DNA of 32,000 nucleotides from Trichodesmium erythraeum IMS101 (GCF_000014265.1 NC_008312.1:2550001-2582000), one strand, 5' to 3'. Shown: positions 3,001-12,000, counted from the stretch's first letter. Made by a program: the numbers.

Positions 3001-6000
3001 TAAGTGTAGTAAAAATTGAATTGGCTATAAAATCTGACAAAATATTTTCTCCAGCTTCAGTATAATGGCAACAACTATCTATATAAACGATTTCTTTGGC
3101 ATTATCTAAAATTTTCACACCATTGAAAAAATTCACACCATTTTGTTTTAAATTGTCTGTTTTACTTAAAAGTACAGGATATCCTAATTCTGTTGCTTCT
3201 CTAAAAGGACTATCAGAGTCAAAAGCAATTTTCTTTTCTGTTTCAGAAAAAACTCGGTTAGTAAAATAATATTGATTAGGTTGTAAAACATGAAAATATA
3301 AAATATTATTACTTGCAGCTATTTGCTCCATCATTATTGATGTTTTTTGCCAGTGTTCTGCCATTGTATCATATAACTCTGATTCTTTTAATTCAGGAGA
3401 CTGTGCATAAAAATAAACTATACTAGCTTCTGTTTCTCCAGCAGCTTGTGACGCTGCTTTTTTTCTTTCTTTATCAAATATTTTGACATTTTTACGATAC
3501 TTTTTTGCTAAATTTTGCACATAAATTGATGTTAGGGCATAACAATAAGCTACTTGACATTTATCTAAAGTTTCTAAGGTACCCTTTAACTTATTCTTAC
3601 TATCGTTAATTTTTAACATAGCTTGAATAGATTTTGTGGAGAGACTATTATTTGCTATATTCGTTAATGGTACAACATGGTTAGTACTTGGCATCATAAT
3701 ATTAACAGCATTTTCGTTGTTTGACTTAGCTATAGTTACCTCGTTAAAACCATCTATATTTATGATCATATCAAATTTCTGACCTATGGAAAGAAAGTAG
3801 TTTAATAGTATTAATTGTTGTGGTTGTTTATAGCCTCCTATTGCTAAAGATAAGATAATAAATTCCTTGTCCCGAAATTCTGGAAGTTGCTTTAATTTCT
3901 TTTCTAAGATTTGATTCTTAATTTCATATATTGAATAGTTTGAGGCAACTGAACCACCAAAAATTCCGATTATATATTGATTATTATTCTTCTTTTTATA
4001 AGGGTAATCATAAGGAGAAATAAAACCAGCATCATTATATTTAAAATCTTCTCTAAAATCTGGTCCAGGTTTTTGTACATACCCAAAGTAAGGATGAATT
4101 CTTTCTATTACAGAACTTTCTAACCTAATTCCTGCTAAGTTTATTCCCATGGGATTTGTATTGACATTAGCATTTTTATTTTCATTTTCATTTTCTAGTT
4201 TTTCTTCTTGATTGTTTTCTGTTACTTTTTCTCTAGTATAGAAAAATTGCTTATATTTGAAAAAATACCAACCTAAAGAACCTAACTCTAAAAATACAAA
4301 TAAGAAAATTATATTCATCAAAACAATTTTCCATAGTTCTGAGGTATTTTTCAAAAAACTCAATTTTTTCATGGCAATTTTATAGCAAATAATTTATATA
4401 TTTTTTCAGTTTTACTCCAGCATAAATACTGGATATTTTGGATTTATATTATTTTGATAATAAGAGTCATACGACGAGGTATTTTTATGATTATATACAA
4501 CATATTCCTAATTAATAAATTATATATTTAGCCAGTAGTAAATAGGGAAAATGGTTTAGAGGATCTGGAACAGAGAAAAAATATTTACTCCGTCAGTTGT
4601 ACCACATTAATTATCAAATATACTGTAATAGCCTTTAACCTAATTATTTAAAAGATATCTGATAATTTAATTAAATAATACTTATTTTATAAAAAATCAC
4701 TAAATTCATGGTATCTAAAACAGTGAACTAGGAAACAAAAAACACATAAAAAAGGTTAATTTTTGAAAAATTGTGAGATAAAAATTTGGCTCTGTAATAT
4801 TTTTAATTTCACATTTTTTAAAAGCAAAAATGCAAAGCAATTGCTTTTTTGATGTCAGGAAAATACGCGGCTATTGCTAATTTTTTCTCAAACACAGAAT
4901 ATGTCATGAAAAAGATTGATTAAATATAAAACTTTACTGTATCAAAGTTTAACGTTATTTTTAACTTATGTTTTGTCTACCCATATAACAATTTTATTTC
5001 CTGCTTTAGGGACAATTAATTAATAGCTAATATCTAATATGTGAGAACTAAATGTACAACATTATCAATCATTTAGAATCGCTATACTTTTCCAATTTAT
5101 ACTGATCACATAAATAATTTGACATGACTTCTCCTACAAATTTATGACCTTCTATATTCCAATGACCTCCACAGGGTTCCCCATTATCAAACCCATATAA
5201 ACACTTGCCTGTTTTTTTTGCTTTATCTCCTAATTGTCCCGCTAAAATATATACTGGAATATTCTCTTGTTTACCAAACGCTTCTATCCTTCTATCTGGA
5301 TAATATAAATCTGATAAATTATGAGCATTTTTAAATTTTTCACGATACTCTAAATCAGGATGTACTTGATGAGAATCACTAATTGCTATAATCATAAAAT
5401 CTGCTCTATTTTTATAGACTTCATCTCTCATTAATGTAATCAAACCTTCCGTTACTTGCCAACCTTTATCCCAGTCGGAATTTGATTCAGGTTCTCGATA
5501 AAAAGAGATAATAGTTTGACCATTATAATTTAAAAATTGACTTTGTTTATAATCCATATCAACTTTTCTGATTAGCTGTAAAATTCGGGAATTTCTCACC
5601 AACCAAATTGGCAATATATCAACCATTGAAAAAACATAACGCCCTCTTTCCCAAGGTTTCATTGTACGGAATGACATATCTGATTCTAACTGACCATTTT
5701 TATAAACAAAATAAGGTCTTAAGTGGTCGTGATCTAGAGGTCGATAATTATTCCGAATATCATTACCAGCATAAAAAGCTAATATAACTAAATCTGGTGA
5801 ATAATCCCAAACATGATGTCTCAATGTCATTAATTCTTGAGCTGTTCCATAACCCTGTACTCCAAAATTCATTACTTCAACTTTCTGGTCTTTTAAGTCA
5901 GGACATTGTTGTAAATTTTGCTCTATTATTGCACCATAAGTATCTTCTAATTTTACATGAACTGCTTCTGTAAAAGAATCTCCTAATAAGGCAATTCTTA

Positions 6001-9000: not shown

Positions 9001-12000
9001 AAAAAATCTACTAGGGAAAAAGCATAACGATCTCTCTGCCAAAATTTTAAATCGCGGAATGACATATCTGTCACAAGTTGACCGTCTTGATAGATAAAAT
9101 AGGGTCTTAAATGGTCATGTTCTAAAGTACGAGAATTATTACGAAGGTCGTTAGCAGCAAAAAAAACTAATATAACTAAATCTGGTGAATAATCCCAAAC
9201 ATGATGTCTTAATGTCATTAATTCTTGAGCTGTTCCATAACCCTGTACTCCAAAATTCATTACTTCAACTTTCTGGTCTTTTACGACAGGACATTGTTGT
9301 AAATTTTGTTCTATTATTGCACCATAAGTATCTTCTAATTTTACATGAATTGCTTCTGTAAAAGAATCTCCTAATAAAGCAATTCTTAAACCATTTTCTG
9401 GTTTGTTTTTACTACGTTCATAATCTCGAAACCCTCCACTATTCATTTTAATTTCCGAAGGTATACCTTCTCCGGTCCAAAATGATTTGCCGTTAGCATT
9501 TCCTGCCCAACCTCGGTAATAGTCTTTGAAAGTGTAGGGAGAATTCTCATCTAATTCCCCGTCTATTCTTGGTGGTGGGGAATTCTCAATTCCTGCTGTT
9601 CTTAGGCCTATTTCACCTACTGCAACAGTAAATATTAATGTAGTGAGTGTGAGTCCTAAATTAATGACTAAATTCTTCAATTTTTTCATTATATATAAGG
9701 TTAGTTGAGCAAGAGATTATTTTTAATCTTGAGAAGAAATTTAGTTAAAACTAAATTATATATAGTACCTGAAAATATAAAATAAACAATTAGGGTAAAT
9801 TTATAATTTCTAGAGAAATACAGCAAATTCCACCTTGGTGAGATACACTCACCCGGGCAAAATGCCCGCAATGGGAAAATTTAATTGTTAATATTTGTAC
9901 TTCATATACTGAGAATCTGCTGTAAGCACCATTGTCAAGTTGTTTACCTATACTAATTTGACGTGAGGCTTGCAATATAAGGGATTCAGTCTTAAATAAA
10001 TGTGTAATTAATTTTGTTTACCTGCTTAAAGCGAGAAATGAGGGTGTCTGGTCTTTTAAGGCTGGACATTGCCGTAAATTTTTTTCTATTGTTCCAGCAT
10101 GAGTATCTTCTCATTTTATATGGACTGCTTCTGTAATTGGAAAGTACAAAGTTATCCTATTATTTTTTTAAAGACCTTATATTTAACTTTATCTGTCAAT
10201 AGGTAATTCCTCGAAATCATTAAAGTTTTAAGTGATCGCCCTCACGGAATTATAAGTTAGTTGAAAGCTATATAGATACAAGAAGTTTCTGAATAAATTG
10301 AAAAATACTTCAACTAGTAAAGAAAATTGATTCCCCAGGGCAGAGTTAATTCACTTACCTCCAACCTTAATTGATTTTTTATTTAAATAAAAAAATACAA
10401 GCAAAATTTGATCAAAAAGGGCATAGTTCCAATAGTTTACCTAGAAAATCATATTGCTTTTTGCAAAAAATAGGATTTGGAAGCTAAACACCTACATTTT
10501 TTTTCTCACAAATGATTTAGGAATAGTATATTTATCGCAGAAATAATTTGCCATTATTTCCCCGACCAATTTATGACCTTCCACGTTCCAATGACCACCG
10601 CAGGGAAGTGCATTATCAAAACCATGGAAACATTTACCTGTTTTTTTAGCCTCATCCCATATAGGACCAGCTAAATTATAGACTGGTATATTTTCCTTTT
10701 TCCCAAAATTTTTCAGTCTGATATCTGGGTAGAATAAATTTGACACATTTAAAGATTTTTTCAAATTATTACGCTGTTGAATATCAGGTAGTACTTGAGA
10801 AGAATGACTGACTGTTATCATCATAAAGTCTGCTTTTTTTTCATATACTTCATCTCGCATTAGCTTAATTAAACCCTCAGTTACTTCCCAAGTTTCTGAC
10901 CAATCAGAATTTGGTTTTGGTTCTTTATAAAAATCTATATTAATTTCCCTATAATCTTTGTTATACTGACGGCGTTTAGCATCAATATCTACCTTTCTAA
11001 TTAGCTGCATAATTCGGGAATTTTTAACTAACCAAAATGGCAAAAAATCCACCAGAGAAAAAGCATAACGGTTTCTCTGCCAAAACTTCAAATTACGAAA
11101 TGACATATCTGCTACAAGTTGCCCATCTTTGTAAACAAAATAAGGGCGTAAATGGTCATGTTCTAGACTAGGAGAATTATTACTAAGATCGTTACCTGCA
11201 TAAAAAGCTAACATGACTAAATCTGGTTGATAATCCCAAACATGATACCTTAAAGTCATTAATTCTTGGGCTGTGCTATAACCACTTACACCAAAATTCA
11301 TTACTTCTACTTTTCGGTTTTTTAACACAGGACATTGTTGTAATTTTTCCTCCATTATTGCACCATAGGTATCTTCTAATTTTACCTGAAGTGCTTCTGT
11401 ATAAGAGTCTCCTAATAAGGCAATTCTTAATCCATTTTCTGGTTTATTTTTACTCCGTTCATAATCACGAAATCCTGCACTATTCATTTTTATTTCGGAA
11501 GGAACACCCTCTTCCTTCCATAACCCTTTCCCATGAGGTTTTCCTGCCCAACCTCTATATAGATCTTGGAAAGTATGAAGAGGATTTTCATCTGCATCCT
11601 TTCTTGGCGCTGGATGCTTAATTCCTGCTATTCTTAATCCTATTTCACCTACTGTTAAAGTAAATATTAATGTACCTAATATTAATCCTAAATTGATGGC
11701 TAAATTATGTAGCTTTTTCATTATTGATTATAATTAAATTTGAACTGTTTGCAGAGGTTATTAGTAATAATTTCTCCTGCTAATTGATGCCCTTCTATGT
11801 TCCAATGCCCAATACATAATGATGTATTTTCAAAACCGTGTAAACAAGCTTGATTTTCCACAGCATAATCTCGAAAAGGTACTACTAAATCTAATACTGG
11901 AAAACCTAAGCGATCGCCCAGAGCTTCTATTCTTTTATTGGGATACAACATATCATTAATATTGTATTGTTTCATAAAAGTTTTTTGTAGATATGGTTGG

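Follow-up and report, generated by a model that had tools for sequence, protein, structure and literature searches.

Our study examined a stretch of 32,000 nucleotides (nt) from Trichodesmium erythraeum IMS101 (GCF_000014265.1 NC_008312.1:2550001-2582000), referred to here as the window, which carries an array of five tandem, same-strand (minus) paralogs, C1 to C5, predicted to be SGNH/GDSL hydrolases, with two further genes, D1 and D2, interleaved among them. In the order of transcription the array runs from an SxtJ gene and a small DUF5989 open reading frame (ORF) through C5, C4, C3, C2, D2 and C1 to D1, with C1 and C2 in direct orientation at a distance of 3.4 kb. An earlier note, made from the sequence alone, had described C1 and C2 as mosaic genes that share a near-identical tract. 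Our analysis suggests that the near-identity of the two genes in this tract is the product of gene conversion between paralogs, in an older event followed by newer patches, a reading to which we assign a probability of roughly 0.87. Coordinates are window positions throughout, and 'alignment nt' denotes nucleotides of the codon alignment of the C paralogs. The members of the array are as follows.

C1, 5069-6322, minus strand: 417-amino-acid (aa) SGNH/GDSL hydrolase with an N-terminal membrane anchor, apparent recipient in the older conversion (ORF, Pfam Lipase_GDSL, orthologs).
C2, 8466-9689, minus strand: 407-aa paralog, apparent main donor in the older event and recipient in recent patches (ORF, Pfam, AlphaFold).
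C3, 10492-11721, minus strand: 409-aa paralog, sister of C2 across the whole 3' two-thirds.
C4, 11721-12938, minus strand: older paralog, 40-48% aa identity, without conversion signal.
C5, 13253-14455, minus strand: older paralog, 40-48% aa identity, without conversion signal.
D2, 6828-8183, minus strand: 451-aa gene between C1 and C2, unrelated to the C genes and outside the conversion.
D1, 2960-4372, minus strand: D2 paralog, 41% aa identity.

C1 to C5 were assigned to the SGNH/GDSL hydrolase superfamily, as predicted esterase-type enzymes, on the basis of conserved motifs and a structural model. Four of the five copies matched Pfam Lipase_GDSL at 24.7-28.5 bits (cut-off 23.6) and C4 scored 20.5. 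Residues G107, D108, S109, G147, N180, D181 and H380 (C2 numbering) were invariant across a 17-sequence family alignment, and the conserved blocks comprised block I with the GDS nucleophile, block II with its glycine, block III (GxND) and a C-terminal histidine motif, block V being an HWN..GH variant and not the classical DxxH. The AlphaFold model of C2 (predicted local distance difference test score, pLDDT, 90.8) had an SGNH fold, and Foldseek returned 73 PDB matches at E ≤ 1e-3; among the matches listed these were mostly SGNH esterases, with a Foldseek probability of 1.0 and a target template-modelling (TM) score of 0.66-0.74. The nearest solved folds were the acetyl-xylan esterases AlAXEase (7ddy) and Axe2, E. 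coli TesA and EstL5 (8ik1). The C proteins are about twice as large as these enzymes and are modelled with two additional N-terminal elements, a transmembrane helix and a β-strand unit, as well as with a helical insert of ~100 residues. A family-profile sequence search of the PDB found nothing significant (best E=0.12), and NCBIfam gave weak matches alone, to Leptospira LA_2486/LA_2490-type SGNH esterases.

Relatives of the array were sought in a scan of species-representative genomes, which yielded eight loci from other Trichodesmium metagenome-assembled genomes (MAGs), Okeania, Dapis and one unclassified cyanobacterial MAG, and two more loci were added via homologs. Orthologs of C1, C2, C3, C5, D1 and D2 were present in these loci, and C4 orthologs in two Trichodesmium loci; C1 orthologs were found in Okeania KiyG1, Okeania SIO3B3 and Dapis. 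Ortholog proteins were 76-95% identical (83-94% for C1, C2 and C3 orthologs in other genera), whereas C1, C2 and C3 were mutually 65-77% identical, which places the duplications before the split of Trichodesmium, Okeania and Dapis. The locus of Trichodesmium sp. MAG_R01 was 98.7% identical to the window, and many marine metagenome contigs (Tara and others) carried the locus at 99.7-99.9% identity over 16 kb. A literature search turned up no publication dealing with this cluster.

The tract shared by C1 and C2 is real, although it is somewhat less uniform than the 'handful' of differences first described. C1 5781-6097 and C2 9169-9485 (the C2 end falling one position beyond the 9484 given in the earlier note) differed at 17 of 317 nt (94.6% identity), and the encoded proteins at 7 of 109 aa from GEGIPSE to GND, in agreement with the earlier count of about seven. 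The flanks were, as reported, much more diverged: nucleotide identity was 67% in the 5' segment, 95% in the tract, 73% in the middle segment and 78% in the 3' segment. In 90-nt windows, identity was 0.93-0.99 over codons 91-180 and mostly 0.61-0.84 elsewhere, a sliding-window profile that was not flat (95-99% in tract windows vs 61-84% elsewhere). The longest exact runs between the two genes (73, 43, 40 and 27 nt) all lay inside the tract, the maximum outside being 22 nt.

Comparison with orthologs narrowed the converted core to alignment nt 301-546, with outer bounds of 265-547, so that it is shorter than the tract noted earlier. From alignment nt 229 to ~290, C1 was still nearer to C1 orthologs than to C2, whereas from ~280 to 546 the window C2 was its closer relative. 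Diagnostic sites that escaped conversion are met first at 264 on one side and at 548 on the other, and the tract therefore spans at most alignment nt 265-547. In the two genes the core lies as follows.

C1 conversion core, 5780-6025, minus strand: alignment nt 301-546, outer bounds 5779-6061.
C2 conversion core, 9168-9413, minus strand: alignment nt 301-546, outer bounds 9167-9449.

These 246 nt hold eight C1/C2 differences (T/C, C/T, C/T, G/A, G/A, A/T, T/G and G/A) and encode C2 residues 93-174, which comprise the first three β-α units of the SGNH core and include both the GDS nucleophile and the glycine of block II. A second candidate tract at alignment nt 1141-1200 was rejected: here the window C1 was 0.88 identical to the window C2, 0.88 to C2 orthologs and 0.92 to C1 orthologs, a likeness that, from the alignment, is attributed to conservation of the HWN..GH motif.

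Formal recombination tests of the GENECONV, MaxChi, 3SEQ and pairwise homoplasy index (PHI) types each detected the C1/C2 tract at p ≤ 0.001. Among the window's five paralogs, the GENECONV-type maximal fragment for C1/C2 spanned alignment nt 209-543 (permutation p=0.0002), and no other pair from C1 to C5 was significant after correction. The triplet maximum chi-squared (max-chi2) test for the pattern in which C1 equals C2 and C3 differs peaked at nt 199-543, where 40 of 55 informative sites showed it vs 65 of 275 outside (p=0.001), and the PHI test gave p=0.001. Recombinant-triplet tests with the window C1 as child, the Okeania C1 as backbone and C2 as donor placed the insert at nt 316-526 and 292-540 (p=0.0002), a result that held when the C2 of MAG_R03, an independent sequence, stood in for the donor (p=0.0002-0.003). 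The triplet max-chi2 test on synonymous-only codons of C1, C2 and C3 (86 informative sites) was not significant (p=0.09-0.28), nor was the similarity of C1 and C3 at the 5' end (p=0.28 and 0.07 by the fragment test, p=0.66 by max-chi2).

Purifying selection alone could in principle hold the catalytic core of C1 and C2 alike without any exchange of DNA. No part of the family is better conserved than the tract, even in comparisons with C4 and C5, where 90-nt windows show 59-79% nt identity; the nonsynonymous divergence (dN) of the tract was the lowest of any segment in every comparison, and C1/C2 pairs taken between genomes are already ~88-91% identical within it. The synonymous sites, however, were not as diverged in the tract as elsewhere. 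Nei-Gojobori synonymous divergence (dS) between C1 and C2 was 0.11 in alignment nt 301-546, vs 1.26, 0.80 and 0.55 in the flanking segments, and dS in the tract was 0.25-0.37 among C1 or C2 orthologs and 0.31-0.51 for between-genome C1/C2 pairs. Similarly, among codons encoding the same amino acid in C1 and C2, 5 of 79 differed in the tract vs 58 of 203 outside (Fisher p=2e-5). As a control, the tract and the remainder of the gene were compared in five ortholog pairs and had equal synonymous differences (12-19%, p=0.45-1), which indicates that the tract is under no special synonymous constraint. The four- to five-fold synonymous drop is thus confined to the within-genome pair. Together with the tree of the tract and the C1-specific derived bases found in C2 of some haplotypes, both described below, this makes selection alone an extremely improbable explanation.

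Phylogenetic inference gave conflicting topologies for the tract and the rest of the genes. In neighbour-joining trees, a clade of the C1 and C2 genes of the window and MAG_R01, uniting the paralogs of one lineage against their orthologs, had a bootstrap value of 98% for the tract but of 0% for the flanks. Conversely, the clade of C1 with its Okeania orthologs received 98-100% in the 5', middle and 3' segments and 0% in the tract. Tract identity was 95.0% between the window C1 and C2, compared to 89-91% for C1 orthologs and 91-93% for C2 orthologs. As judged from these trees and divergences, the tract is shown to coalesce far more recently than the rest of C1 and C2, and more recently than the split of this lineage from Okeania and Dapis. 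The proposal of recurrent gene conversion between array members was therefore borne out for the C1/C2 pair by dS, trees, permutation tests and the several events described below, and the suggestion that conversion homogenizes the catalytic core was right for SGNH blocks I and II.

The direction of the older transfer was examined at sites where the Okeania and Dapis C1 share one base and C2 orthologs another. At 402, 411, 424 and 526 the window C1 carried the C2 base (4 of 4), and at site 405 it retained the C1 base. This indicates that the older event ran mainly from C2 to C1, over at least alignment nt 402-526, which corresponds to the following stretch.

Best-shown C2-to-C1 stretch, C1 5800-5924, minus strand: alignment nt 402-526.

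The C1 and C2 genes of MAG_R01 displayed the same pattern (tract dS 0.10), which makes the main event older than the split between the window strain and MAG_R01.

Our study further revealed haplotypes in which part of C2 has apparently been replaced by C1 sequence, at the position given below.

C2 stretch replaced by C1 sequence in some haplotypes, 9210-9309, minus strand: minimum alignment nt 405-504, bounds 9167 and 9349.

The sequence L002/L017 from the LEEM17-1 metagenome had 4 differences from the window over 11.2 kb and 5 over 16.3 kb. Its four differences at C2 alignment nt 405, 428, 430 and 504 each carry the C1 base, and these are all four of the leftover C1/C2 differences in nt 365-547, leaving C1 and C2 identical over 183 nt. 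A contig from a different Tara sample (L018), on the common Tara haplotype background, carried 428A and 430T alone. The base 428A is confined to C1 of this lineage and 504G to the window-type C1, with T and A, respectively, in all C2 orthologs; as derived and C1-specific bases, they identify the patches as transfers from C1 and not as ancestral polymorphism. Among protein records for C2, 8 contigs carried the variant form, compared with 47 for the reference form. These haplotypes show that newer, shorter C1-to-C2 patches are polymorphic in the present-day ocean population, with conversion apparently ongoing.

We also considered whether the mosaic, or the population variants, could be assembler chimeras of the near-identical paralog segments. 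Metagenome assemblers can cross between repeats, and the nearest paralog-distinguishing sites flanking the L002 patch are 41 and 44 nt away. Nevertheless, assemblies made independently reproduce the mosaic exactly (MEGAHIT k127 contigs, scaffolds from other pipelines, MAG_R01 and a 7.75-Mb contig): the same C1 protein is found on at least 23 independently assembled contigs with identical gene order, and the C2 protein on 47 contigs, of which the 7.75-Mb contig is one. The core still holds its eight C1/C2 differences and so has not been collapsed, and the variant C2 occurs on its 8 contigs in two haplotype backgrounds. An assembly artefact is accordingly scarcely credible.

Conversion between C1 and C2 is not restricted to the window lineage. 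The C1 of Dapis M229 contained a C2-like segment at alignment nt 288-507, in the same tract as in the window (p=0.0004), with a tract dS of 0.19 to its own C2 and ~0.35 to other C2 genes, and the decayed C1 of Dapis M126 showed a weak tendency in the same direction (tract identity of 90.7% to its own C2 vs 84-89% to other C2 genes). In Okeania sp. SIO3I5, C2 (L013:2582-3793) carried a C1-like segment at nt ~118-216 (triplet p=0.0002), located in the variable linker after the membrane anchor and thus in a different part of the gene from the window tract. No tract conversion was detected between C1 and C2 of Okeania KiyG1 (tract dS 0.53). These segments identify C1/C2 conversion as recurrent in the clade, with independent events in Dapis and Okeania.

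The content of the array also differed among genomes, as seen when loci L007, L008, L009, L010, L013 and L015 were compared with window 2960-14455. Trichodesmium MAG_R02 and MAG_R03, like several further loci, lacked C1, and in both Dapis genomes this gene was a pseudogene; D1 was also absent from MAG_R03, C3 of MAG_R02 was fragmented into three tblastn pieces, C4 was seen solely in Trichodesmium, and Okeania SIO3I5 and SIO3B3 each had two D2-like copies. Copy number therefore varies, as the earlier note had proposed to check, but the variation takes the form of loss and pseudogenization. The C1 pseudogene of Dapis sp. BLCC M229 (L012:12307-13533) had nine in-frame stops and no frameshift in 409 codons, and that of Dapis sp. 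BLCC M126 (L011:13786-15194) consisted of two tblastn pieces and had lost the GDS serine.

Homologous recombination starts in near-perfect identity and is aborted by mismatches, as is characteristic of RecA and mismatch repair, and Trichodesmium is polyploid, which may give extra opportunity for exchange between C1 and C2. The process would exchange ~250 nt between C1 and C2 by apparently non-reciprocal homologous recombination, presumably of the RecA type. Purifying selection on SGNH blocks I and II would keep the long identical runs (73, 43 and 40 nt) that confine exchange to the tract, the 67-78% identical flanks would halt heteroduplex extension, and every conversion would renew identity, giving a bounded and self-sustaining conversion island. 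A conserved core set between such flanks should act in this way. A further proposal, and one that we regard as unlikely, is that the tract is a long-lived, selected island in which the same 250 nt have been repeatedly homogenized in Trichodesmium and Dapis while the substrate-facing insert and C-terminal parts were kept distinct. If this were true, the enzymes of the array would have a catalytic module in common, which co-evolves, and specificity modules that have diverged, and conversion could rescue decaying copies, the Dapis C1 pseudogenes still receiving C2 sequence.

Several points weigh against gene conversion in the form set out here. The direction of transfer is mixed, as sites 300 and 471 carry the Okeania C1 base in both window copies, and C2 contains a weak C1-like segment at nt 282-357 (p=0.007, uncorrected for multiple tests); such signals imply either more than one event or patchy heteroduplex repair, and the history of the tract probably involves more than one event. 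Just two to three intact C1 orthologs polarize the sites, and many of the 'diagnostic' sites may be Okeania-specific. Homogenization of the tract before the genera separated is weakly indicated: Nei-Gojobori dS hints at it (0.3-0.5 vs 0.7-1.3), yet the synonymous difference in KiyG1 was 26% in the tract vs 30% outside (p=0.64). The segregating variants come from metagenome assemblies, and for L002 a chimeric path through the near-identical tract is possible. A chimera is less likely for L018, in which the C2-specific 405A and the C1-specific 428A stand 23 nt apart, a junction that the usual assembly k-mers could not bridge without real reads. Lastly, the RecA, mismatch-repair-limit and polyploidy steps of the mechanism are ones that we infer.

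A second mosaic segment had been claimed at the 3' ends of C2 and C3, in the following stretches.

C2 3' end, 8466-8760, minus strand: claimed C2/C3 tract, not a conversion tract.
C3 3' end, 10492-10790, minus strand: partner segment in the claimed C2/C3 tract.

The underlying sequence statement was correct, as the peptides SLNVSNLFYPDIRLKNFGKKENIPVY and LAGPIWDEAKKTGKC are the same in C2 and C3 and different in C1. The informative-site pattern in which C2 equals C3 prevails from nt 636 to the gene end, and bootstrap support for a C2 and C3 clade was 99% for the middle and 84% for the 3' segment. As a product of conversion, however, the 3' end was rejected. No C2/C3 fragment was significant (fragment p=0.11 and 0.17; triplet p=0.12-0.52), dS between C2 and C3 was flat along the gene (0.75, 0.39-0.48, 0.70 in the middle and 0.56 at the 3' end), and the mean proportion of synonymous differences (pS) was 0.35 both within and between genomes, leaving no within-genome excess. 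At the 3' end dN alone falls (0.056 vs 0.142); for comparison, dN there was 0.20 between C1 and C2 and 0.06 among C1 orthologs. A search for C2/C3 conversion in four genomes found no significant segment, the 5' end of C2 vs C3 in Okeania 1238230 being borderline after multiple tests (p=0.018).

An ancient C2/C3 conversion, in the ancestor that Trichodesmium, Okeania and Dapis share, might nonetheless account for a rise in nucleotide identity from ~80% to 88-90% near the 3' end, for a 3' tree with short branches in which C2 is non-monophyletic (24% bootstrap), and for a mean pS of 0.35 at the 3' end vs 0.44 in the middle segment. Against this, the ratio of C2–C3 pS to C2-ortholog pS is flat (~1.3 in the 5', 1.4 in the middle and 1.5 in the 3' segment), there is no significant fragment, and the rise in identity comes from non-synonymous sites (dN 0.05 vs 0.12-0.14), so that we consider such an event unlikely. 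The 3' likeness of C2 and C3 is instead attributed, from these comparisons, to sister relatedness together with purifying selection on the C-terminal part (HWN..GH motif). C2 and C3 are, on their predicted branching, the youngest duplicates, C1 having gained its C-terminal replacements early.

The patchwork had also been taken to fit a locus under diversifying pressure, in which conversion reshuffles the variable insert and C-terminal parts. A programmed diversification of surface structures, whether by cassettes or antigenic variation or under pressure from phage or grazers, would be in keeping with exported or membrane-anchored enzymes that adjoin AlgX-like genes, with copy number that varies among genomes, and with the conversion in Okeania SIO3I5, which replaced the variable 5' linker. 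In the window, by contrast, conversion homogenizes the conserved core and leaves the variable parts untouched, and reshuffling of the latter was unsupported. Segmental dN/dS across paralogs and orthologs was ~0.1-0.56, with a single highest value of 0.8 (C1/C4, 5' end) and none above 1, so the proposed dN/dS calculation per segment lent no support to diversifying selection. C1 to C5 are all complete ORFs with their own start codons, with no silent cassettes among them; the orthologs of each paralog are conserved across the three genera, and the ocean population is nearly monomorphic at the locus. A Pfam scan of window ORFs of at least 100 aa found no reverse transcriptase and no dedicated recombinase, the only recombination-related genes being transposases of insertion sequence (IS) elements distant from the array. 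Taken together, this evidence renders programmed diversification very unlikely. A diversity-generating retroelement was likewise rejected, as no reverse transcriptase domain was present in the ORFs scanned and the eight C1/C2 differences of the core, given above, do not follow the adenine-specific pattern of a template and variable repeat.

The tufA and tufB genes of Salmonella and ribosomal RNA operons are examples of concerted evolution. That gene conversion drives such evolution in prokaryotes is well documented, among others for the cyanobacterial psbA and psbD genes (PMC6053082). As in all of these cases, the C1 and C2 of one genome are more alike in the tract than orthologs are, their gene tree conflicts with synteny, and events recur across lineages. 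Unlike psbA/psbD-type cases, ~20% of C1 and C2 has been homogenized while the remainder has diverged since before the three genera split, which leaves a mosaic, and the genes encode accessory enzymes and not subunits of a core complex. A further difference from the documented cases is that C1/C2 patches are seen segregating in metagenomes. In Neisseria pilE/pilS and Borrelia vlsE, variable segments pass at high frequency from silent, truncated donors to a single expression site, and selection is diversifying. Transfer between C1 and C2 resembles these systems in being segmental, apparently non-reciprocal and between nearby homologs, and in producing mosaic genes; it differs in that both genes are complete, that the conserved core and not a variable segment is transferred, and that selection is purifying. 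C1 and C2 are a new instance of a known process; they reveal no new mechanism and lend no support to a diversification system.

The surroundings of the array abound in SGNH- and AlgX-type genes, and two features flank it in the window.

SxtJ-domain gene, 15521-15934, minus strand: head of the array.
AlgX-like gene, 1876-2943, plus strand: opposite strand to the array.

At 15357-15934 (minus strand) the SxtJ gene is directly followed by an intact 54-aa DUF5989 (SxtK-like) ORF; this pair heads the SGNH array and is kept in the Trichodesmium, Okeania and Dapis loci, with no carbamoyltransferase in the stretches examined. On contig L001, a 603-aa protein without a Pfam match (14681-16492, minus strand) would fall just past window position 1 to ~1640, and another AlgX-like protein of 405 aa (18748-19965) flanks the array. 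D1 and D2, of 450-470 aa, had no Pfam or NCBIfam match, and their GGS, DGFNE and DxCCHY motifs hint at a very divergent SGNH-like enzyme; with its interleaved C and D genes, the array gives the impression that a C–D pair was duplicated in the distant past. C3 was 409 aa long in the window and in part of the contigs, whereas other contigs and MAG_R01 had a form of 402 aa, and a C/G polymorphism at alignment nt 1244 (3' end of C3, 10492-10515; L001, L004 and L018) probably explains its lengths in the Tara contigs. Elsewhere in the window, IS remnants were located at 28065-28791, 29163-30022 and 22077-22577 and comprised an IS630-family transposase in two overlapping frames, two IS5-type DDE fragments and an HTH_Tnp_4 fragment. 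The regions ~20500-22000 and 25400-28000 held no ORFs of at least 100 aa, consistent with the gene-poor Trichodesmium genome.

In summary, the C1/C2 tract provides a well-controlled natural case of partial bacterial gene conversion, in which orthologs from three genera date the events and synonymous controls exclude selection. Phylogenetic trees or ortholog calls made from the catalytic core of these SGNH genes will mislead, and short-read variant calls inside the tract may be derived from the paralog. Moreover, ocean metagenomes catch new conversion patches in the Trichodesmium population while these are still segregating.

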